Below the pieces are notes generated by a model. It ran no database searches and had not been told where the DNA came from. It saw only the letters and a list, made by a program, of their open reading frames with translations. A DNA stretch of 64,000 nt from the NCBI RefSeq assembly GCF_003019035.1, contig NZ_CP027447.1; one strand, written 5' to 3'. The first letter of the stretch is position 1. The number at the start of each line of letters is the position of its first letter. This stretch comes from Escherichia coli (GTDB lineage: Bacteria; Pseudomonadota; Gammaproteobacteria; Enterobacterales; Enterobacteriaceae). Below are positions 1,549-52,506 of the stretch, one piece after another. Position numbers and translations under genes: made by a program.

Positions 1549-2907
1549 TTATGCTACGTCTTCGTACTGCGGAACCGGGTTACGGAAGCTCTTGGTTACG
1601 CATGCCAGGTAAATCAGACCGATAGCAGCCCAGATCAGACCCAGAACCATTGAGCTTTCTTCCAGGTTAACCCACAGCGCACCAACGGTCAGCGCACCAC
1701 ACATCGGCAGGAACAGATACTGGAAGTGATCTTTCAGCGTCTTGTTACGCTTCTCACGGATCCAGAACTGCGAGATGACCGACAGGTTAACGAAGGTGAA
1801 CGCCACCAACGCACCAAAGTTAATCAGCGCCGTAGCCATTACCAGGTCGAAGTTGATTGCCAGCAGGGCAATCGCGCCAACCAGGATGATGTTCATCGCC
1901 GGAGTACGCCATTTCGGGTGTACATAACCGAAGAAGCTTTTCGGGAACACGCCGTCACGACCCATTACGTACATCAGACGCGCTACGCCTGCGTGCGCCG
2001 CCATACCGGACGCCAGTACGGTAATGGTGGAGAAGATCAGCGCGCCAACCTGGAACGCTTTACCCGCAACGTACAGCATGATTTCAGGCTGTGACGCATC
2101 CGGATCTTTAAAGCGAGAGATATCCGGGAAGTACAGCTGCAGGAAGTAAGTTGCAAAGATGAAGATCATGCCGCCAATCAGCGCGGTCAGGAAAATCGCA
2201 CGCGGGATCACGCGCTCTGCATCTTTGGTTTCTTCCGACAGATTGCTGATGCCGTCAAAGCCGGTAAAGGAGAAGCACAGGATTGTCGCCCCGGTAATCA
2301 TCGGGATAACATGCGCATCGCCAGACCAGAACGGACGAGTGCTCGCCAGCGTACCCGCGCCTTCACCTTCAAATACGCCATAAACAACCATGCCCAGAAT
2401 CACCGCGATCAGCACTACCTGCAACACGACGATTACAGTGTTGAAGTTCGCTACGGATTTCAGACTACGCAGGTTAAAGGCGGTCATAAAGGCCACCAGC
2501 GCCACCACAAACATCCACGATGGGATGGAAGGCACCAGAGCTTCAAAATAGATTTTCGCCAGCAGAATGTTGATCATCGGCGCGAACAGATAGTCGAGCA
2601 GAGAAGACCAACCCACCATAAAGCCGACAGTCGGGCTAATGGATTTCTGGGCGTAAGTGTATGCAGAGCCAGCAGAAGGATAGCGGCGAACCAGCTTCCC
2701 GTAGCTCAGAGCCGTAAACAGGATCGCAATCAATGCGAACGCATAGGCTGTCGGCACATGACCATCCGTGAGGCCTGAAACGATACCAAAAGTATCAAAC
2801 AGCGTCATCGGCTGCATATAGGCTAGACCCATCATTACAACCGGAACTAACGTAAGCGTTTTACGCAATTCCACGCGAGAGGTGTTTGGAGTAACGTTAT
2901 GCGACAT
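1549..2907 (-). CDS. plaP: APC-family amino acid/polyamine permease (putrescine importer PlaP/YeeF)
   Basis: ORF translation [16 protein letters not shown]..., 452 aa from the second in-frame Met; multi-pass permease; conserved position between yeeE and yeeY. Confidence 0.8.
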
Positions 2908-3054
2908 GGTCATTCTCCTTTACGATGATAACCGTCGCGTAAGCAAAAAATTGCCCCATTTTTTTGGATTCCTCAGCGACAACAACTGTCGATTTTTAGT
3001 AAATATCTATCCGGTACGAAGCCCGGCCTCTTGGTATGAATGATTGGTTTGAAG

Positions 3055-35130: not shown

Positions 35131-36351
35131 CTATAAAGCCTGCAGCAAGCTGGCGAGTTCTCGATTAATCACCTGCTGGTTAAAATCGTGTTCGACTTTT
35201 TCGCGAGCACGTTTGACGACCGGAGCCAGTTCGTCGGTGTCCAGTTGGCTAAACGCCGCCAGTCGTTGCGCCAGTGCTCGAGCATCGTTCTCAGGCACCA
35301 GCCAGCCGGATTTGTCGGCCTCCACCAGTTCCGGTATTCCGCTATGCAGAGTAGAAACCACCGGAATGCCGACCGCCATTGCTTCCATCAGCGCCACCGG
35401 AATGCCTTCCATATCGCCGTCAGCACCCGTTACCGATGGCAACAGAAAGACATCCGCGTCGTCGAGCATCGCCTTCACTTCGTGGCTCGGTTTAAAGCCC
35501 GGCATCTCTACCACATCTTCCAGTTGATATTGTTCTATGAGGGTGCGCAGGCGTCGTTCCCACGGGCCAATGCCGAGGATGCGATAACGAAATGCCACGC
35601 CCTGCTCTTTCAACTGACGGCAGGCTTCGATCGCCACGTGCAGGCCTTTTTTCTCGGTTAAGCGTGCGACGGAAATGATTTCCAGCGGCGTTGCGGGCGC
35701 TTTCACCGGACGCGGGCTAAAACGCGTCATGTCCACGCCCATGCGCGATACGGCAATTTTTTCCCTCGGGCAGCCCATTTTTTGCAGCCTTCCGGCCCAC
35801 AGTTCGCTAATCGGTAACATCAAATCGCCACGACGAAACAGTTGTTGATATTCGGGAGTGTAATGGTTGAGCACTTCCCGACTGGAGATATCAATGCCGT
35901 GGAAGATAGTGGCAATTTTGCCGCGAATGACACCCAGTTCCCGTAGTTTTGCTGCGGTTACCCCCGCAGGGCCAAAATGTGCGATAAAGACATCGGCATA
36001 AAATGGTATTGCGACCTGACCACAAATGGCAGACAAAATCAGGTTCCGCGACTCTGCACCATAGCGTTTGAGGTTAAGCGCCTGCCAGGTATTTTTACGA
36101 TGAATACCGCGCAACGTCTGGCTGGCGCGGTGGCGCAGTTTCGCCACTTTGCCTTGTGGCTCGTCCTGTAACCAGCGGGTTCTGGCGGCAAGGTTATATT
36201 TTGTCCATGCCGCGTGGGTGTTTTGTGTGTCGCCTTTTTGCAGCGCGACAATCTCCACCTCAAAGCCCATATCAATAAACGCGGTAATTTGATTGAGGAC
36301 GAAGGTTTCCGACGACAGTGGAAATTTCAGTAAAAAGAAGCCGACCTTCAT
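35131..36351 (-). CDS. wcaL: colanic acid biosynthesis glycosyltransferase WcaL
   Basis: 406 aa, GT-B (GT4-like) sequence; conserved order. Confidence 0.85.
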
Positions 36352-37628
36352 TTCGCCTCCCCGATGCGTTCAAGCACAGATTTCACCATCTGCATTCCCG
36401 TCTGACGTTCGCGGCTGACGGCTTCGTTAAGTCGCGTGTTCAGTGCCGGAAGCTGGCCTAAGGTATCCGCAACCATCGCTTGCAGGCTGCCGTCTAATAA
36501 ATGACGGATATCAATTGCCATCTCTGGTAGCCCCAGTTGTTGCATGATCCCGGCGGATTTATGTTCATAGTTGATGGCAATTGCCGGAGTGGCAAAGTTC
36601 ATCGAGATAATAGCCGAGTGCAGGCGCGTACCGACGGTGAGTTCACAGGCACCGAGAATTTTGCCCATTTCCAGATCGTTGAGTTCATCCATCACTACGT
36701 GATAACGGGCAGGATCGCTGATGTGCTGACGCAGGTTGAGCGCCACCATGCGGTCGTCTTTGTTATAGCTGTCGATGCCCGTACAGGTGGAGAGCGCAAT
36801 CACCTGATACCCTTCATCGAGAATGCGATTGACCACCCCGGCAAAGGCTTTTTCATACGCTTGTTGAGTGGTGCCGAGACGTTTGTCGAACGGTGCCAGT
36901 TCGCGCAGGGTAATTGCCACCGTTTTCTGTTGTGCGGCAACGTCCAGCCAGTGTTGAACGGCATAGCTGGCGGTGAAATCTTCTGTGTGGTGATCGACCA
37001 GCCATGCGGTATCGACCCCATGTTCGACTTTTGCGGTAGTGATATTGCTGTGTTTCATTAGTTCCAGGCTGACCGATTCGCGCAGGATCAGCGCGTCGCA
37101 GTGACCGAATACGTAGTTCGCCAGTTGGTTAAATTGCTCATCCTGGAACGGGCCGACGCTGTGACCAATCATAAACAGCGGCTTTTTCGCCATAAACGTG
37201 CAAAGCGCGTGTTCAAACTGCGGCACGCCGTAGAGATCAACAAAAAACGAACCGCCGACCTGGATAATGGCATCGTAACCTGAAAGCAGGCGCACAAAGT
37301 CAGTAAATCCCTGGGCAATGGCGATATTACGCAGCTTGCCAGTGTCGGTGACGCGTGAGAGCAATACCTGGTGCTGGTAGCGGCGACGGAGGACTTTTTT
37401 TACGCGCCCGACAACGCCCGCCGCGCTGTTGTGTTGTTTCATTTGCAGGAACAGCGGATCGCCCATTACCGGACGGTTGAGCAGCCAGGAAGAACTGACC
37501 GGATAGCGGCTCATTACGTCCACTTCGGCGTGTGGATTGAGGATGTTGATGGCATCAAGTAAGCCGCGCAAGATGGCGCTGTCGCCGCGATTGCCGCAAG
37601 TGTGGTTGCCCAGAATCAGTAATTTCAT
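36348..37628 (-). CDS. wcaK: colanic acid biosynthesis pyruvyl transferase WcaK
   Basis: 426 aa; conserved order. Confidence 0.85.
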   Translation of the reverse strand: MKLLILGNHTCGNRGDSAILRGLLDAINILNPHAEVDVMSRYPVSSSWLLNRPVMGDPLFLQMKQHNSAAGVVGRVKKVLRRRYQHQVLLSRVTDTGKLRNIAIAQGFTDFVRLLSGYDAIIQVGGSFFVDLYGVPQFEHALCTFMAKKPLFMIGHSVGPFQDEQFNQLANYVFGHCDALILRESVSLELMKHSNITTAKVEHGVDTAWLVDHHTEDFTASYAVQHWLDVAAQQKTVAITLRELAPFDKRLGTTQQAYEKAFAGVVNRILDEGYQVIALSTCTGIDSYNKDDRMVALNLRQHISDPARYHVVMDELNDLEMGKILGACELTVGTRLHSAIISMNFATPAIAINYEHKSAGIMQQLGLPEMAIDIRHLLDGSLQAMVADTLGQLPALNTRLNEAVSRERQTGMQMVKSVLERIGEAK

Positions 37629-37699
37629 TTTTTCCTCATAAATTTGATGCCAGGTGAGGTTATGTTGTTGTTTTTATTGCCGGTGCCTAAAACAACAAC

Positions 37700-39178
37700 T
37701 CACCCCGCCCGTAAAAGCATTTTCATTTTTTCGCTGCGACAAAACTGACGCTTCACTTCCACCACCAGCGGATGGCGCGACAACACAATCATCACCACAA
37801 ACGCCAGCACGCCTGCGGCTATTTGCACCGCCAGCAGCATCCCCAGCGCCAGTTGCCCTTTCAGCACAATGCCCAGCGCATAACTAACCACCAGCGTCGG
37901 CAGCGAGAGATAAAACGGCAGCCATAAACTCAGGATGTACTGGCGATAACTGGAACCGAGCACCGGTTTAATCATCACGAAATAGCTCAGAATGGTGTTG
38001 ATAATCTGCACCAGCAGGAAGCCGAGCGTGACGCCGATTGCGCCCGCCATCTGCCCACCAATAACAATCGCCGGAATAAACAGAAATGTTTTGAATACGT
38101 TGAATTTAAAGCTGATATCGACCCGCGCTTTCGCCATCAGCAGCGAACCAATCGGGTTCCCCACTGAGCGCAGCAGCCCCACCACACACAGCAATTGCAG
38201 CACCGGAATAATGCTGCTCCACTTCTCACCAAAGACCAGCGGTACAAAGTTATTCGACACCACCATCAGCCCCAGCAGCGCCGGAAAGTTGATAATCCCC
38301 ACCACCGACAGCAGCTTGTAGAAGTTGACGCGCAGCTTTTCGGTGTCGTCCTGAATTTTGGCAAACGCCGGAAACAACACGCGCGTGATGATTGGGTTCA
38401 GCTTCATCGGCGGCACAACGGCCACGTTGTACGCCAGGTTGTATCCCCCAGCTACGCCCGCGCCGAGAATACGCGCCAGCACCAGCGTTGAAAGGTTGGT
38501 ATTGAGATAGTTGATGATGCTGTCCGCCGTCAGCCAGGCACCAAAACGTAAGTTTGGTGCCACCGACGCCAGCGAGAAGTGCAGACCGGGGCGATAAATT
38601 TTGCGACCAAAGTAGCCAAACAGCAGCGTTCTTACCGCACTATTGACCAGATAACCGAGGATCGCGGTCATCGCCAGTGGCCAGAAATGGGCGCTAACCA
38701 CCGTAAAAGTGAAGCCCGCCAGCACCGCGCTGGTTTCGATCATGCCGATTTTGTTGAACTCCAGCTCTTTTTGCATCAACGCGCGGAACTGCTGCCCGTG
38801 GGGGATCACCACAAACGCCAGCGACAATGTTTTAATCAACGGTGCCAGGTCCGGATTATTCAGCATGTCGCCAATGGCATCACTCAACAAAAACACCGCC
38901 ACACACACCACAAGCCCCAGCCCAACGTTCAGCCAGTACAGCGTGGTGAGTTCAAGGTGGCTGATTTCTTTTCGCTGAATAATCGAGTTAGCGATACCGA
39001 AGTCAGAAAGCGTATCTGCCAGCGCGATGATCACCAGCGACACGGTAAGCAAACCGAACTGGTGGTTGTCGATAATCCGCGCCAGCACGGTCATCTGCAC
39101 CAGCCCGAGGCCGATGATGATCACCGTGGCAATCGCCGACCACTTCGCGCCGCTGATGGTTTTTTCACGTAAGCTCAT
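37700..39178 (-). CDS. wzxC: colanic acid repeat-unit flippase
   Basis: 492 aa, multi-pass membrane protein. Confidence 0.85.
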   Translation of the reverse strand: MSLREKTISGAKWSAIATVIIIGLGLVQMTVLARIIDNHQFGLLTVSLVIIALADTLSDFGIANSIIQRKEISHLELTTLYWLNVGLGLVVCVAVFLLSDAIGDMLNNPDLAPLIKTLSLAFVVIPHGQQFRALMQKELEFNKIGMIETSAVLAGFTFTVVSAHFWPLAMTAILGYLVNSAVRTLLFGYFGRKIYRPGLHFSLASVAPNLRFGAWLTADSIINYLNTNLSTLVLARILGAGVAGGYNLAYNVAVVPPMKLNPIITRVLFPAFAKIQDDTEKLRVNFYKLLSVVGIINFPALLGLMVVSNNFVPLVFGEKWSSIIPVLQLLCVVGLLRSVGNPIGSLLMAKARVDISFKFNVFKTFLFIPAIVIGGQMAGAIGVTLGFLLVQIINTILSYFVMIKPVLGSSYRQYILSLWLPFYLSLPTLVVSYALGIVLKGQLALGMLLAVQIAAGVLAFVVMIVLSRHPLVVEVKRQFCRSEKMKMLLRAG

Positions 39179-39179
39179 A

Positions 39180-40574
39180 TCAATATGCCGCTTTGTTAAC
39201 GAAGCCTTTGAATACCGTCAGGAAAACGATTTTGATATCGAACCAGACGCTCCATTCGCGGATGTACTCAAGGTCGAACTCGACGCGTTTTTCCATTTTC
39301 TCCAGCGTGTCGGTTTCGCCGCGCCAGCCGTTAATCTGCGCCCAGCCGGTAATGCCCGGTTTCACTTTATGGCGCAGCATGTAGCCTTCAATGAGCTGGC
39401 GATACTGTTCGTTATGCGCCACCGCATGCGGACGCGGACCGACAATCGACATCCCGCCAGTCAGCACATTGATAAACTGCGGCAATTCGTCCAGCGAGGT
39501 GCGGCGCAGAAAGTTCCCCACTTTGGTGACGCGCGGATCGTTCTGCGTCGCCTGAGTCACCACTTTGTCGTTCTCCATCACTTTCATCGAACGGAACTTC
39601 CACACTTTGATCGGCTTGCCATCCATGCCGTAGCGAGTCTGGCGAAAAATAACCGGCCCCGGTGAGCTCAGTTTCACCGCTAGCGCAATGCAGCACAGCA
39701 CCGGGGAGATCAGCAGCAGGATAAGCGTCGCCAGCACAATGTCTTCCGCACGTTTGAGCAGGCGGTTAACCCCGGAAAGCGGCGTGTCATACAGCGGCAC
39801 CACCGGTACGCCATTCATCTCTTCGAGGCGTGAATGGAGAATGTTGAAGGTAAAGACATCGGGGATCAGCAGCACCGAACAGGTGGTGTCCGCCAGTTGA
39901 TGGACCAGTTTTTTCACTCGCGCGCCGTCGCACATCTGCATCGCGATATAGACGTTATGAATCTTGCCCGCTTTCGCATCCTCGACCAGCTGTTGCAGAT
40001 TACCCGCCCAGTCGTTAGAAACGCCACCCGGTTTCGGGTCGTGGTAAACGCCCACCACTTCAAACCCTAACCACGGCTGATTACGGAAGCTCTCCATCAG
40101 CATTTGTCCGGCGGCTAAATCCCCCGCCACCGCGACCATGCGCTTGTTATAGCCATGATTACGCAGCCAGCCCGCCCCAATACGAATACATGAACGGCAA
40201 ACCACCAGTCCGATGCTGGTCAGCCCATACCACGCCAGCCAGATTTTCAGTTGCGTGTCGAAATCATTATTGAACGCCACCAGTCCGGCGCTGAAAATCA
40301 CGCTTAAGGTCCAGTTTTGTAGCAGCAGGGCAAATTCTGTCGCTGCCCGAACACCGCGCCATGAGCGATAAAAATCGGTGATGCCACCCAGCATCTGGAA
40401 CACCACCAGCGTAATCAGCGCCACCAACAGGTGCATGTAGAGGAATGACAGGCCGCTCACTTCGCAAACCAGCCATAGTCCGGCAAACATGATGGTGATA
40501 TCTGAAAAGCGTTGCACCATAGAGATTAACGATGCATTGGTTTTCGCTCGCTCGCGCTTTTTTAGATTTGTCAT
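39180..40574 (-). CDS. wcaJ: undecaprenyl-phosphate glucose phosphotransferase
   Basis: 464 aa, N-terminal TM helices and C-terminal sugar-phosphotransferase domain. Confidence 0.85.
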   Translation of the reverse strand: MTNLKKRERAKTNASLISMVQRFSDITIMFAGLWLVCEVSGLSFLYMHLLVALITLVVFQMLGGITDFYRSWRGVRAATEFALLLQNWTLSVIFSAGLVAFNNDFDTQLKIWLAWYGLTSIGLVVCRSCIRIGAGWLRNHGYNKRMVAVAGDLAAGQMLMESFRNQPWLGFEVVGVYHDPKPGGVSNDWAGNLQQLVEDAKAGKIHNVYIAMQMCDGARVKKLVHQLADTTCSVLLIPDVFTFNILHSRLEEMNGVPVVPLYDTPLSGVNRLLKRAEDIVLATLILLLISPVLCCIALAVKLSSPGPVIFRQTRYGMDGKPIKVWKFRSMKVMENDKVVTQATQNDPRVTKVGNFLRRTSLDELPQFINVLTGGMSIVGPRPHAVAHNEQYRQLIEGYMLRHKVKPGITGWAQINGWRGETDTLEKMEKRVEFDLEYIREWSVWFDIKIVFLTVFKGFVNKAAY

Positions 40575-40628
40575 CGTTGTTCCTGTTTTTAACCCCTTAC
40601 CCGCAGTGGGGTAAGGGAAGATCCGACA

Positions 40629-41999
40629 TTACTCGTTCAGCAACGTCAGCAGAGTTCGCGTTCGCGCTTCCATCAGCGGCACATCACCGCGCGATTCCAC
40701 ATTCAACCGCACCACCGGTTCGGTGTTGGAGGAGCGCAGGTTAAAGCGCCAGTCGGCAAAGGTCATGCTGATGCCATCGGTGCGATCCACCGCCAGCGCC
40801 TCACGGCTAAAATGCTGTTCCACGCGGTTAATCGCCTCAACGGGTTGCGCCAGTTTGCTGTTGATCTCACCGCTTGCCGGAAACGCTGCCATCCGGTCGC
40901 GCACCAGTTCGCCCAGCGTTTTTCCTTTCAGGCACACCAGTTCGGCGACCAGCAGCCACGGGATCATGCCGCTGTCGCAGTAAGCGAAATCACGGAAATA
41001 GTGGTGGGCGCTCATTTCGCCACCGTAGATGGCGTCTTCCTTGCGCATACGTTCTTTAATAAAGGCGTGTCCGGTTTTCGACATTACCGGGGTGCCGCCT
41101 GCGGCAGTCACCACATCAACGGTGTTCCAGGAGAGACGTGGATCGTGGATGATCTTCGCGCCGGGATTTTTTTCGAGGAACGCTTCTGCCAGCAGGCCGA
41201 CAATGTAGTAGCCCTCAATAAACTGCCCTTTTTCGTCAAACAGGAAACAGCGGTCAAAATCGCCATCAAAAGCAATGCCCATATCCGCGCCGTGTTTAAT
41301 GACCGCATTGCGGGTGTCGTCGCGACATTCCGGCAGCAACGGGTTAGGAATACCGTTGGGGAAATTGCCGTCCGGCGTGTTATGCACTTTGATTAACTCC
41401 ACCGGTGCGCCGAGGGCTTTAAAGCGGGCTTCGATGGCGTCCACCACCGGACCCGCTGCGCCGTTCCCGGAGTTGATCACCAGCTTGAGCGGCGTAAGGT
41501 TTTTGATATTGATATAACCGAACAGGTGATCAACGTATGCATCACGCAGGTTGATTTGCTGATAGCGACCGCGTTTGGTTTCATCAACGGGAGGAAAGTC
41601 GTTGGCTTCTGCCAGACGCTGGACGTCGCGCAGTCCGGTATCGCCGCTGATCGGGCGAGCCCCTTCGCGCACCAGCTTCATGCCGTTGTAATCCATCGGG
41701 TTATGGCTGGCGGTAACTTCGATGCCGCCATCCACGCCGAGATGGAACGTGGCGAAATAGATTTCTTCGGTGCCGGACATACCGATATCCAGCACATCGA
41801 CGCCCGCATCCTGTAAACCTTTCGCCAGCGCCAGTTTTAAGGTTTCGCTGGTGAGGCGGACATCACCGCCTAACACAATGGTTTTCGGTTTGAGAAATTC
41901 GCCATAGGCGCGACCAATGCGCCAGGCGATATCTTCATTCAGTTCTTCGCCTAATTTCCCGCGAATATCATAGGCTTTAAAGCAGGTTAATTTTTTCAT
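40629..41999 (-). CDS. cpsG: phosphomannomutase, colanic acid copy
   Basis: 456 aa from [14 protein letters not shown]; TASHNP phosphoserine motif. Confidence 0.9.
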
Positions 42000-42099
42000 G
42001 TCGTTACCCTTTTTCAGGCAATAGTTGGCCCTGACCGAAACGGCCAATTTTGTTTTTTCGTTATTTACCGGAGAATTAATCCGGTTGATTATTCAACGG

Positions 42100-43536
42100 C
42101 TACACCCGTCCGTAGCGATCCGCGAAGCGCACCACATCATCCTCTTCGAGATAAGAGCCGGAGCGCACTTCAATTAAATCGAGCGGAATTTTCCCCGGGT
42201 TTTCCAGGCAGTGCGTCGCCCCCAGCGGAATATAAATGGACTCGTTTTCACCAAGCAGTTTGATATCACCGTCAATGGTGACTTTTGCCGTTCCCGCGAC
42301 CACTACCCAGTGTTCCGCGCGGTGATGGTGCATCTGTACCGACAAGCCCTCGCCCGGTTTCACGGTGATGCGTTTCACCTGGTAGCGATCGCCCGCGTCG
42401 ATAGAGTCATATTTGCCCCACGGGCGATACACTTCGCGATGCACCCGATGCTCATGGCGACCATCGGCTTTGATCTGCTCGACCACTTTTTTCACATCCT
42501 GAACCGCGTTACGGTCGGCAATCAGCACCGCATCTTTGGTCTGCACTACCACCAAATCTTTCACCCCGACGGTGGTGACCAGGCCAGATTCGGCATACAC
42601 ATAGCTGTTTTCGGTTTTGTGATTAATCACATCACCGTGGCAAACGTTGCCCTCGGCGGTGTGGGCGCTGATCTCCCATAAAGAGGACCAGGAGCCGACA
42701 TCGCTCCAGCCTGCATCCATCGGCACCACAACGGCATCTGCCGTTCGTTCCATGACCGCGTAATCCACCGACTCTTCCGGGCAGGCCAGAAACGCTTCTT
42801 CATCCACACGAATAAAATCGAGATCCGGATCGACGGCGCTCATCGCTTTTTCACAGGCGTCGAGAATATCCGGGCGATATTTTTTCAGTTCTTCGAGATA
42901 GCATCCGGCGCGGAACAGGAACATGCCGCTGTTCCAGTAATATTCGCCGCTTGCTACATAGGCCTGGGCGGTTTCCAGATTCGGTTTTTCGACAAACTGC
43001 GCCACTTCAAAGGCCACCGTATCCTGCTCACCCGCAGACACTTCACCGCGACGAATATAGCCATATCCGGTTTCAGGTAGATCCGGCACAATGCCGAAGG
43101 TCACCAGCTTGCCCGCTTCGGCATATGGCATGGCATTACGCACGGCGGCACGGAACGCGTCTTCATCGGCAATCACATGATCCGCCGCCAAGACCAGCAT
43201 TAACGGGTCGCTCTCCGGGCTATGACGTTTTGCCGCCAGCGCCGCCAGCGCAATGGCAGGTGCAGTGTTACGCCCTGCCGGTTCGAGAATAATGTTCTCG
43301 GTGAGTTTATTCAGTTGACGCAGCTGTTCCGCGACAATAAAGCGGTGCTGCTCATTGCAAATCACCACCGGGCTTTCGCACTCCACGCCGTTCAGGCGGC
43401 AGATGGTGGTTTGCAGCATGGTGAGATCGCCTTTCAGGCATAAAAACTGCTTGGGATAAAGTACGCGGGAAAGCGGCCATAAGCGGCTACCGGAGCCACC
43501 TGCCATCACAACTGGATAGAGTTTCGACTGCGCCAT
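42100..43536 (-). CDS. cpsB: mannose-1-phosphate guanylyltransferase, colanic acid copy
   Basis: 478 aa, [24 protein letters not shown]... Confidence 0.9.
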
Positions 43537-43538
43537 AA

Positions 43539-44762
43539 TTATCCCCGAATATCATTTATAAATTGACGTAACACGTTCTCTTTATCGAGCGTGCGTTCGG
43601 CATATTCACGTGCCACCGTGTTGTGTTTGGGCAGCAGGAGCGCCTGACGGATCCCCGCCACCAGCGCCTCGACCGATTCCGGTTCTACGCAAACCGCAAT
43701 GCCCGGAAAGGTTTCGCAAAGCTGTCCCAGTTCTGTGTGGGCTTCAGCAGTAATCACCGCGTTACCGCCTACCGCCAGAATATTGGTCAGTTTCGACGGC
43801 AATACGGCATCTGCCGCGCCGCGTTTTTGCACCACCAGATGGCAATCCCCCATCTTCAGCAGTGCGGGTAAAGCGTCATACGATTGCAGCGGGAAAAATT
43901 GCATGTTGCGCAGTCCACGCTGCTGCGCCATTTTTTCCAGCCGCGCTTTGCCGCCGCCCTGCCCGACAATGGCAAAAATCAGCGGTTCATCGCGCAGACG
44001 ATCGGCAGCTTCAATAACGTTTTCCAGCCCCTGCTTTTCACCAATATTGCCGGAGTAAAGAATGATTTTTTTGTTATCCGGCAGGTCAAGCTGGTTACGA
44101 AGGGCGTCAACATCGGCATCTGCAACATGCTGAAAACGGGCAATTTCCGACCAGTTGGGGAAGAAGATGACGTTTTCCGCCGCCACGCCTTTTTCGATGG
44201 CTTTATTCATCATCGAACGCGAAATCGTGGAGACGTTATCGACGTTATTCAGTCCGCTACGTTCGAACGCCGTTGCCAGCTGTGCCACTTTGCCGCCTTT
44301 GCCTTTTCCGGCAAGGCCCAGCCCCAGCATGGCGTCCACTTCGTAATCCTGAATATGTAGCACCGTGCGCGCACCAGACAGTTTCGCCAGCAGGCGCATT
44401 CCCGGCGTGCAAAACAGCGTTGGTACCACGCCGATAATGCGATCCGGCTTCCAGCGACGTTGCGCCATCAGCGGAAAGAAACTGCTGGCGGCAAAACTGC
44501 CGAGATGCAACAGGCGTTTCAGGGTGCTCGGCTGTTTTGGTACGTACAGCGGGCAGCGCCACACCGTGGCGGCCCCCTCTTCTCGTTTGTACCGCCAGGC
44601 GGAATAGTTCTCGCCCACCTGCCATTGCGGGTAGTAAGGCGGTGCGGTAATAACCCGCACCTCATGACCTTGTGCCGCCAGCCATTCCACCATCTCGCCG
44701 GTGTACTTGCCGATGCCGGTTAACTCCGGCGAGTAGTTAATGCCGTAGACCAGTATTTTCAT
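43539..44762 (-). CDS. wcaI: colanic acid biosynthesis glycosyltransferase WcaI
   Basis: 407 aa; conserved order. Confidence 0.85.
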
Positions 44763-45238
44763 AATCCGGGTACTCCGGCACGCTTCTCAGCGAGAAAATA
44801 GGCGCGGCTGTTAGCGTGAACATTGTCACTGGCGAGCAACGCGTCCGGCGTCAGCCAGCGGTAATCGTCATGCTGCTCATCCGGCAGTAACAGCTCTTCT
44901 TCCGCTACTCTGATGCGAAAACCGAGCACCACATAGTGAGTGGTAAAATCCGAGCCGGAGAAGTTATCGTCATAAAAGTGCTGCCAGACACCGTAAAACT
45001 GGCCTGCTGTTATCGGCAGACGCAACCCCAGTTCCGCAAGCGTCAGCCGCTCAAATGCGGCTTCCAGCGTTTCGTCTTTCTGCACGCGCCCTCCCGGCAC
45101 AAACCAGTAACCCTGCGCCGGGCGGTTGGTTCTTTTGCCAAGCAGAAACTCGCCGCGACTGTTCTCGACAATAAAGTCGAGAGAGACAAGCGGTGTGGAG
45201 CGCACTACCGTGGCAAAGTCTTCCTGACGTAAAAACAT
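44759..45238 (-). CDS. gmm: GDP-mannose mannosyl hydrolase (Nudix), colanic acid copy
   Basis: 159 aa from [12 protein letters not shown]... Confidence 0.85.
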
Positions 45239-45240
45239 CA

Positions 45241-46206
45241 TTACCCCCGAAAGCGGTCTTGATTCTCAAGGAACCACTGGTAAGTGCTGGCAAGCCCCGC
45301 TTCCAGTGAGATTTCGTGATACCAGCCAAGCTGATGCAGGCGCGTCACATCCAGCAGTTTGCGCGGCGTACCATCCGGTTTACTGGCATCAAAAACCACC
45401 CGACCTTTGTAACCCACCACTTTGGCGATGGTTTGCGCCAGCTCGCGGATAGTGCAGTCAACGCCCGTGCCGACGTTAATGTGCGACAGCATCGGTTGGG
45501 TGTTCTCCAGCCAGACTTCGTGCGCCAGCTCCATCACATGAATGCTTGCCGCCGCCATATCATCGACATGCAGAAATTCACGCATCGGTGTACCGCTGCC
45601 CCATACCACCACGTCCGGCGCATTCTGTGCCGTCGCCTCGTGGAAGCGACGCAGCAATGCAGGGATCACATGCGAATTACTCGGGTGGAAGTTGTCATGC
45701 GGGCCATACAGGTTGGTCGGCATGACAGAGCGGTAATCGCGTCCGTACTGGCGGTTGTAAGATTCGCACAGTTTGATCCCGGCGATTTTGGCAATGGCGT
45801 ATGGCTCGTTGGTCGGCTCCAGCGTGCCCTGTAACAGCTCGCTTTCTGCCATCGGCTGTTTTGCCAGTTTTGGGTAGATACAGGACGATCCGAGAAACAG
45901 CAGTTTGTTGACGTCGTTCTGATGCGCGGCGTGAATGATGTTGCTCTCAATCATCATGTTCTGGTAGATGAAATCTGCCGGATATGTGTTGTTGGCAACA
46001 ATGCCGCCCACTTTCGCCGCCGCCAGATAGACCTGGTCAATGCGTTCGCTGGCAAAGAAATCATGCACGGCGCGGCTGTCCAGCAGGTTCAGCTCGTCGC
46101 GGGTACGTAATACCAGTTCCACATCACCGCGCTGTTCGAGCTGACGGGTGATAGCGGAACCGACCATCCCGCGATGACCAGCAATAAAAATGCGTTGTTT
46201 ACTCAT
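45241..46206 (-). CDS. fcl: GDP-L-fucose synthase, colanic acid copy
   Basis: 321 aa, [19 protein letters not shown]... Confidence 0.9.
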
Positions 46207-52414: not shown

Positions 52415-52448
52415 AGGTTGTTCTCCCGGCTTATGAGCTGGTTTGCTT

Positions 52449-52482
52449 GCCGGATGCGGCGTGAACGCCTTATCCGGCCTAC
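52449..52482. repeat. REP (repetitive extragenic palindrome) element between wzc and wcaA
   Basis: GCCGGATGCGGCGTGAACGCCTTATCCGGCCTAC matches the E. coli REP consensus by eye. Confidence 0.5.
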
Positions 52483-52506
52483 GGGGCGGTGCGAATGCAG
52501 GCGTCG

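Follow-up and report, generated by a model that had tools for sequence, protein, structure and literature searches.

A hairpin maintained by selection between cpsG and wcaJ in the colanic-acid operon mRNA of Escherichia coli

The colanic-acid (wca/cps) cluster is found on the minus strand within the 64-kb stretch of Escherichia coli DNA analysed here (the window, 64,000 nt), in which wcaJ occupies 39180..40574 and cpsG ends at 40629; both gene names were taken from the RefSeq annotation of identical DNA. The short spacer between these two genes carries a GC-rich hairpin, designated HP2, and our study identifies it as a selectively maintained stem-loop in the polycistronic wza...wcaM mRNA, not a terminator. 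A first-pass annotation of the window, made from the letters alone, had placed a strong stem-loop at 40594-40617 in this spacer, and it is there exactly as described: the plus-strand letters read CCCTTACCC-GCAGTG-GGGTAAGGG and form a 9-bp perfect stem. On the mRNA, the helix has 10 pairs including a closing U·G pair, with a 6-nt loop and a folding free energy (dG) of about -17 kcal/mol (z = -3.3 for 30 nt). A second hairpin, HP1, encloses the cpsG stop codon. The features of the junction, in mRNA order after the spacer itself, are as follows.

40575..40628, minus strand: cpsG-wcaJ intercistronic spacer, 54 nt, equivalent to 2121555-2121608 of K-12 MG1655, where no feature is annotated.
40623..40649, minus strand: HP1, a hairpin of 11 bp; its 5' arm is made of the last cpsG codons, CUGACGUUGCU, and its 3' arm, AGUAAUGUCGG, of the stop codon and the first 6 nt of the spacer.
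40629..40631, minus strand: cpsG stop codon UAA; it belongs to the 3' arm of HP1, and the first paired base of HP2 follows 10 nt downstream.
40619..40622, minus strand: single-stranded linker AUCU, 4 nt, between HP1 and HP2; variable in sequence (divergence 0.41).
40593..40618, minus strand: HP2, with 5' arm U+CCCUUACCC (40618..40609), loop CACUGC (40608..40603) and 3' arm GGGUAAGGG+G (40602..40593).
40585..40592, minus strand: A/U-rich, unpaired linker from HP2 to the wcaJ Shine-Dalgarno sequence (SD), UUAAAAAC, without a U-tract; it reads CUAAUAAC in K-12 (divergence 0.36).
40572..40584, minus strand: wcaJ ribosome-binding site (RBS), consisting of the SD AGGA (40584..40581), the spacer ACAACG and the start codon ATG (40574..40572).

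The mRNA thus continues 3' of HP2 as UUAAAAAC-AGGA-ACAACG-AUG, and HP2 leaves the wcaJ RBS unpaired. From this single sequence HP2 is only suggestive, because 9-bp perfect inverted repeats are not rare and because the 74-nt context of the spacer reaches a weak z of -1.6 only. Chance alone should produce about one short-loop perfect inverted repeat of 9 bp per 64 kb by our estimate (64000 x 6 / 4^9), and three perfect inverted repeats of 9 bp occur in the surrounding 10 kb. It is the location of HP2 in a 54-nt spacer, together with the comparative data, that makes the case for a real feature.

Of 80 species genomes in which a WcaJ orthologue was located, 73 allowed the limits of the cpsG-wcaJ spacer to be set; adding the window gives 74 spacers. 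A single hairpin of -12 kcal/mol or stabler is present in 73 of the 74; the mean z of the 74 spacers is -3.8, and z falls below -2 in 60 of the 74. On the mRNA, the 5' arm is always rich in C/U and the 3' arm in G/A. The position of the helix is also regular. Between the stop codon and the first strong helix there are 7 nt at the median; the distance is at most 15 nt in 61/74 spacers and greater in 13/74. From the 3' edge of the last strong helix to the wcaJ ATG, the median is 21 nt (interquartile range, IQR, 18-23). The control was wzxC-wcaK, the operon's next spacer of appreciable length, taken from these same genomes. Of 64 genomes, 20 have a hairpin of -12 kcal/mol or stabler there, versus 63 at cpsG-wcaJ. 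The control spacer is short and unstructured in most genomes (best hairpin weaker than -5 kcal/mol in 47/71), and REP or BoxC repeats occur in it sporadically. Since both spacers receive the same kinds of palindromic repeats, yet only cpsG-wcaJ keeps a hairpin nearly always, the cpsG-wcaJ site is not merely a passive landing pad for repeats.

Within E. coli, the cpsG-wcaJ junction was found in 4639 of 5426 complete genomes. A 40-nt probe centred on HP2 matched 4129 E. coli genomes, at a median of one place per genome and a maximum of two, with a single match in the window; the hairpin of K-12 MG1655 is identical to that of the window. Among the sampled E. coli variants are an inserted C in the loop, other loop changes, and a stem base whose replacement gives U·G pairing; none of them loses the stem. 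As HP2 is single-copy, gene conversion from other copies is ruled out as the cause of its stem conservation.

The pattern of substitution was followed in an alignable set of 15 Escherichia, Salmonella and Citrobacter sequences, in two alignments (A1 and A2). Standard pairs fill 97.3% of the HP2 cells. Pair 44-57 is A-U in seven sequences and G-C in eight, and pair 41-62 alternates between C-G and U-A (three cells in A1, five in A2); one further change, from U-A to C-G, is seen in A1 only, the cell falling on a gap in A2 and going unscored there. Altogether, two to three HP2 pairs show compensatory changes, and the six loop columns vary freely. Covariation as high as that observed arose in none of 500 column shuffles, and with the 3' partner slid by 1-3 columns, 44-65% of cells remained paired. 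RNAalifold independently returned the same HP2 helix. By mean pairwise divergence, the block from the SD to the ATG is lowest (0.056), followed by the stem (0.16); the linkers stand at 0.36-0.41, four-fold sites of the flanking genes at 0.39 and the loop at 0.54. The stem thus changes 2.4 times more slowly than the four-fold sites, and the loop faster than they do. The RBS block of wcaJ, ACAGGAACAACGATG, is almost invariant and always unpaired. Compensated pairing with unpaired parts free to vary is what is generally seen in a conserved cis-acting mRNA structure, and we conclude that the pairing of HP2 is under purifying selection. Conservation across Enterobacteriaceae, which the first-pass annotation had proposed as a check on its stem-loop, is hence borne out, compensatory changes included.

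HP1 was also predicted independently by RNAalifold. It is 96.4% paired in the alignable set and includes one compensated pair (A-U, G-C or G·U) and five pairs that vary on one side, most of them exchanging G·U for A-U or G-C. Conservation of HP1 covers Escherichia, Salmonella and Citrobacter; outside that clade it is absent. Three of its pairs are G·U, and it folds on the sense strand only. The antisense strand, on which HP2 forms without HP1, reaches -19.9 kcal/mol, versus -31.5 kcal/mol (z = -5.9) for the two hairpins on the sense strand. Over the 74 spacers, the sense strand is the stabler in 50, with a mean difference of 1.8 kcal/mol. The sense specificity of HP1 and the preference for the sense strand point to RNA, rather than duplex DNA, as the selected molecule. 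This strand argument is weaker for HP2 alone, which is a perfect palindrome folding equally on both strands. In Citrobacter youngae CCUG 30791 (L009) and Citrobacter sp. Cu233 (L011), at 2800-3000, most of cpsG is gone and its last ~60 nt are fused to unrelated sequence; HP1, HP2 and the wcaJ RBS are all intact in these two genomes.

A second form of the spacer, 127-135 nt long, is carried by 509 of the 5426 E. coli genomes, including strain E69 (L001). The coding sequence flanking it is 99-100% identical to that flanking the common allele. In E. coli 2003-3014 it takes the following form.

L081, 333-467: alternative allele, an inverted BoxC/TMECO pair with a degenerate left element and an intact type B (CCG) element on the right.

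Elements of the type CCCTCTCCC-loop-GGGAGAGGG-TTA/CCG-GGGTGAGGG (~37 nt) occupy the cpsG-wcaJ site in about 30 other species as well as in these 509 E. coli genomes, as single elements, perfect four-block palindromes or inverted pairs. They match the description of TMECO in PMC4666352, and the copy from Enterobacter matches E. coli genomes at a median of 22 places each. About 20 further species have at the site a simple hairpin in which the core blocks of BoxC alone are present (CCCCTCTCCC/GGGGAGGGG). The sequence of HP2 is shown to be replaceable by other hairpins at this site. The BoxC/PIT/TMECO repeats number 23 copies in MG1655, are always intergenic, and often form inverted pairs of type A and type B (Holder et al. 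2015, PMC4666352). In Enterobacter and Lelliottia (L020, L022, L027 and L049, upstream of 3001), inverted BoxC pairs make nearly perfect helices of 35-48 bp, with -80 to -96 kcal/mol and z down to -9.7; these have the length of an RNase III substrate, unlike the 10-bp hairpin of E. coli.

HP2 itself was tried as a member of the BoxC family and rejected: it has two blocks only, the spacer holds no third G-rich block, there is no triplex potential, and HP2 is single-copy. A pattern search for BoxC with three mismatches gave no match in the window. There are nevertheless likenesses to BoxC. Both run from a C-rich to a G-rich arm in blocks of 9-10 nt (CCCTTACCC in HP2 versus CCCTCACCC / CCCTCGCCCC), and the intergenic HP2 stands at the exact position of the full BoxC elements or inverted pairs of the other species and of the 509 E. 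coli genomes. Against this, HP2 has two blocks and no potential to form a triplex, it occupies one place versus ~22 per genome, and its central bases differ by compensated changes (compared with BoxC/PIT/TMECO of Bergler/Bachellier; Hoyne & Maher 2000, 2002; PMC4666352). Global alignment of the K-12 spacer to the BoxC allele matches HP2 to the right-hand TMECO, whose middle purine block has no counterpart in HP2. The aligned blocks are CCCTCGCCCC...[deleted]...CGGGGTGAGGGG versus CCCTTACCCC...CGGGTAAGGGG, and CGGAACTT/CGGATCTT upstream also match. The score of 76.3 was reached by none of 500 shuffles (58.1 +/- 4.2), although blocks so short and of such low complexity may also have converged. 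The positional equivalence of HP2 and the BoxC elements holds over the 74 spacers. HP2 is thus probably a BoxC derivative, in which the pyrimidine block and one of the two purine blocks would remain. The purine blocks of a TMECO are a pair of 10-nt direct repeats separated by 3 nt, so that slippage could easily remove one of them and turn a BoxC into a hairpin of two blocks.

The suggestion in the first-pass annotation that the structure might be REP-like did not hold, either in sequence or in copy number (single-copy in 4129 E. coli genomes); its relatives are BoxC/PIT/TMECO. As a candidate REP or BIME, HP2 was rejected because CCCTTACCCCACTGCGGGTAAGGG is unlike the consensus of the GCCGGATG...CGCCTTATCCGGCCTAC type and because it is single-copy where those repeats number hundreds per genome. 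REPs are listed for three other spacers of the cluster and not for cpsG-wcaJ, and the wcaA-wzc REP is conserved in all strains compared (Iguchi et al., PMC3158064). A genuine REP, GCCGGAUAAGGCGUUCACGCCGCAUCCGGC, lies in the window at ~52448..52480 on the minus strand, within the wzc-wcaA spacer (52415..52506), and forms a stem-loop after wzc. In a covariance-model scan of 36000-46000 against Rfam 15 (cmscan, E <= 10), no match fell at 40575-40650. The only real match in that scan was the algC RNA motif (RF02929) at 42004..42053 on the minus strand (78 bits versus a gathering threshold of 33.8, E = 1.7e-16), in the 100-nt cpsB-cpsG spacer just upstream of cpsG; this motif is a known candidate cis-regulatory RNA. 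No description of HP2 was found in the searchable literature, the original cluster paper (Stevenson 1996) lying outside the search.

The first-pass annotation had further considered the stem-loop unlikely to be a terminator for want of an adjacent T-run, and our data support this view. HP2 is followed by no U-tract on either strand, the mRNA strand continuing with UUAAAAAC and the plus strand with AAGAUCC; a terminator scan of 36000-44000 did not flag it; and the related BoxC/PIT elements showed no terminator activity in the studies reviewed in PMC4666352. In the same 8 kb, no promoter-like site was found. With HP2 unflagged and promoter-like sites at zero, a reading as internal promoter or terminator was dropped. 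What is found, as in stabiliser-type structures, is a stable stem-loop (-17 kcal/mol) between co-oriented genes 54 nt apart, with no terminator-like or promoter-like site. A peak from FlhDC systematic evolution of ligands by exponential enrichment (SELEX) near wcaJ/cpsG lies elsewhere in older coordinates and is irrelevant here.

What HP2 might do is a separate matter. By analogy, a part in mRNA stability or processing or in the expression of distal genes, as the first-pass annotation had suggested, is plausible. Our preferred reading, put forward tentatively and with somewhat more doubt than belief, is by analogy that HP2 acts as a decay barrier or boundary element in the operon mRNA, splitting the stability of wza...cpsG from that of wcaJ...wcaM. 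Its position would suit such a role, cpsG being the last gene of the block of soluble GDP-sugar enzymes and wcaJ the first of the distal membrane-protein block (wcaJ, wzxC, wcaK-M). RNA polymerase would read through HP2, and its stem, together with HP1, could then form a physical barrier like the 'stabiliser' hairpins of REPs. Exonucleases working 3'->5' (PNPase, RNase II), having gained entry where the distal genes are cleaved or their transcripts end prematurely, would be halted by this barrier. The mRNA segment upstream might consequently outlive the wcaJ-distal one, which would give unequal expression of the operon's two halves. Such behaviour has a precedent, as REP hairpins reportedly block exonucleolytic decay and stabilise the mRNA upstream of them (Newbury 1987; Khemici & Carpousis 2004, via PMC12306157). 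After its presumed origin from BoxC, the single-copy hairpin would have evolved under selection for pairing. As a barrier depends only on the stem, the sequence may drift by compensation, and a BoxC element or an inverted BoxC pair may take its place.

Several points weigh against selection on this hairpin or against its role as a barrier. The hairpin has been lost in Citrobacter sp. MGH106 (L024, 2955-2994), the sole exception among the 73 genomes. The spacer is 39 nt long there, its best hairpin reaches -7.5 kcal/mol, and the wcaJ RBS is intact; owing to this loss, the hairpin is dispensable at least in that strain. The genomes compared are phylogenetically related, so the counts are not independent and p-values overstate independence. 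The covariation amounts to only ~3-4 independent compensatory events, beside ~3 uncompensated ones, in a small clade of 15 sequences. Furthermore, a barrier by itself does not account for two features of position, the short distance to the stop codon (median 7 nt) and the nearly fixed one of ~21 nt to the ATG; other explanations suit these equally well or better. The colanic-acid operon is barely expressed in standard culture without Rcs induction. For this reason, it says little that no 3' ends for cpsG or wcaJ were found in the Term-seq supplements (Adams et al. 2021), which is weak evidence given such low expression of the operon. The RepRanger supplements have no entry for the cpsG-wcaJ site. 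Finally, BoxC/PIT elements show neither promoter nor terminator activity and no effect on RNA polymerase (Hoyne and Maher via PMC4666352), and no positional or functional pattern ties BoxC to gene expression (Holder et al., PMC4666352).

The closeness to the stop codon could mean that HP2 acts on the ribosomes that finish cpsG. It would impede ribosomes reaching the cpsG stop, with stalling, cleavage and trans-translation, lower CpsG, and RNA ends that separate the operon halves. This mechanism is reported for REPs less than 16 nt from a stop codon (Liang, Rudd & Deutscher 2015, via PMC12306157). HP2 begins 10 nt after the stop in the window, within that range, as do the helices of the 61 spacers with 15 nt or less; its stability is comparable with that of REPs; and HP1 places the stop codon inside a helix. 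However, the short distance may reflect a minimal spacer, 13 of the 74 spacers exceed 15 nt, no need for down-tuning CpsG in every species is obvious, and the effect has been demonstrated for REPs only. We consider this explanation unlikely.

The constant distance to the ATG could indicate instead that HP2 serves wcaJ, either as an insulator or uncoupler of its RBS, or as a protective 5' stem-loop of the distal RNA after cleavage in the spacer. As an insulator, HP2 would lock the C-rich/G-rich (SD-like, anti-SD-like) spacer in a local helix, the wcaJ RBS would stay free, ribosomes terminating at cpsG could not slide and re-initiate, and WcaJ synthesis would be set by its own RBS. WcaJ is the initiating enzyme that consumes undecaprenyl phosphate, and its dosage plausibly needs separate control. 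The near-constant 3' edge of the helix, whether formed by a simple hairpin or by a 100-nt BoxC pair, and the almost invariant, always unpaired RBS block are in line with such a role. On the other side, the constant spacing may arise simply from a conserved RBS block abutting the upstream sequence, and an alternative fold occluding the SD is not convincingly conserved, with only weak UUCC/GGAA pairing. We know of no cleavage site in the cpsG-wcaJ spacer. Taken together, we rate a service to wcaJ as rather improbable. A switch that sequesters the SD was rejected separately: minimum free energy (MFE) folds show only the UUCC/GGAA pairing and a possible Citrobacter-specific extension between the 5' flank of HP2 and the wcaJ SD, which is too weak.

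HP2 might also be a neutral relic, an old BoxC insertion decaying in a tolerant spacer, where nested palindromes shrink to smaller ones and G/C-rich stems mutate slowly. That HP2 aligns to a TMECO minus one purine block, and that Citrobacter sp. MGH106 has lost the hairpin, would fit decay of this kind; besides, BoxC, REP and other palindromes litter the spacers of the operon (PMC3158064), and BoxC is without demonstrated function. We nevertheless doubt this explanation. A single-copy element has no upkeep by gene conversion, yet the stem changes 2.4 times more slowly than four-fold sites and the loop faster. The stem changes are mostly compensated or to G·U, and the hairpin is found in 63/64 genomes here versus 20/64 at the neighbouring spacer.

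A transcriptional attenuator or pause site, at which partial or Rho-assisted termination would lower wcaJ-wcaM unless RfaH-modified polymerase reads through, appears very improbable. The colanic-acid operon depends on RfaH/JUMPstart antitermination, and the stem is stable and GC-rich. Attenuation associated with REP/BIME has been reported (Espeli 2001, via PMC12306157). However, HP2 lacks a U-tract on either strand, PIT/BoxC elements showed no terminator activity and no effect on RNA polymerase (PMC4666352), and no Term-seq 3' end is listed, although this last point is weak.

We give next to no credence to a DNA-level element, be it a cruciform, a single-stranded DNA hairpin or a former triplex site acting in replication or in recombination (as a junction in the hypervariable cps/O-antigen region), or a protein-binding palindrome: HP2 is indeed a perfect palindrome that folds equally on both strands, TMECO loci are reported to be prone to rearrangement (PMC4666352), and the E. 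coli spacer is dimorphic (4129 simple versus 509 BoxC genomes), but two blocks cannot form an intrastrand triplex, G·U variation is tolerated on the sense strand, HP1 is sense-specific, and the loop is unconstrained, although a protein or recombinase should read sequence there.

It is conceivable, though we hold it to be doubtful, that the cpsG|wcaJ boundary needs a hairpin and that any hairpin serves, so that BoxC/PIT repeats would act here as interchangeable domesticated mRNA cassettes, which with HP1 would set the ratio of GDP-sugar enzymes to WcaJ. This ratio might be set by stalling or uncoupling of ribosomes at the junction, or by mRNA halves of different stability. The cassette would take the form of a two-block hairpin in most E. 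coli, of an inverted BoxC pair in 11% of them, and of a single or double BoxC in other genera. Were this true, the locus would be the first with a demonstrable selected role of BoxC at the RNA level, the function of BoxC having stayed unexplained for ~30 years. The natural pair of E. coli alleles makes the idea directly testable, and Citrobacter sp. MGH106 provides a natural knock-out of the hairpin.

In kind, HP2 is already known: it is an intercistronic GC-rich hairpin related to an enterobacterial palindromic repeat. With the REP stabilisers (e.g. malE-malF, via PMC12306157), it shares a stable GC-rich stem without a U-tract between cistrons of one mRNA, but it lacks the REP consensus and is not repeated in the genome. 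Similarly, it resembles the stop-proximal REPs (Liang 2015 via PMC12306157) in starting 10 nt after the cpsG stop, and differs in not being a REP. The algC motif RF02929 is likewise a conserved structured RNA in an intercistronic position of the same operon, one gene upstream, but is unrelated in sequence and structure. In colanic-acid and group 1 capsule clusters, a stem-loop downstream of wzc is said to be a transcriptional attenuator. It, too, is an intra-operon hairpin in the same kind of cluster, and it is said to grade expression along the operon; however, it stands at another junction (wzc-wcaA), where the window has a REP, and HP2 is without a termination tract.

The practical consequence of HP2 is small, and the structure is of an ordinary type. 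Since colanic acid synthesis draws on a shared undecaprenyl-phosphate pool, to which WcaJ commits it, HP2 is a plausible tuning point for capsule and envelope stress. Moreover, with a near-universal hairpin, compensation in one clade and a BoxC swap in ~11% of E. coli, the locus offers a clean natural experiment on small palindromic repeats in mRNAs.

The control spacer has structures of its own. In the window, the wzxC-wcaK spacer (37629..37699, minus strand; z = -3.6) holds a perfect 11-bp AU-rich hairpin at 37664..37699, GUUGUUGUUUU/AAAACAACAAC. E. coli E69 (L001) and E. whittamii (L002) have one or two REPs inserted between the arms of this hairpin, in its loop. The wzxC-wcaK spacer of other genera consists of 14-40 nt without structure or carries BoxC elements, which parallels the dimorphism of hairpin and BoxC at cpsG-wcaJ.

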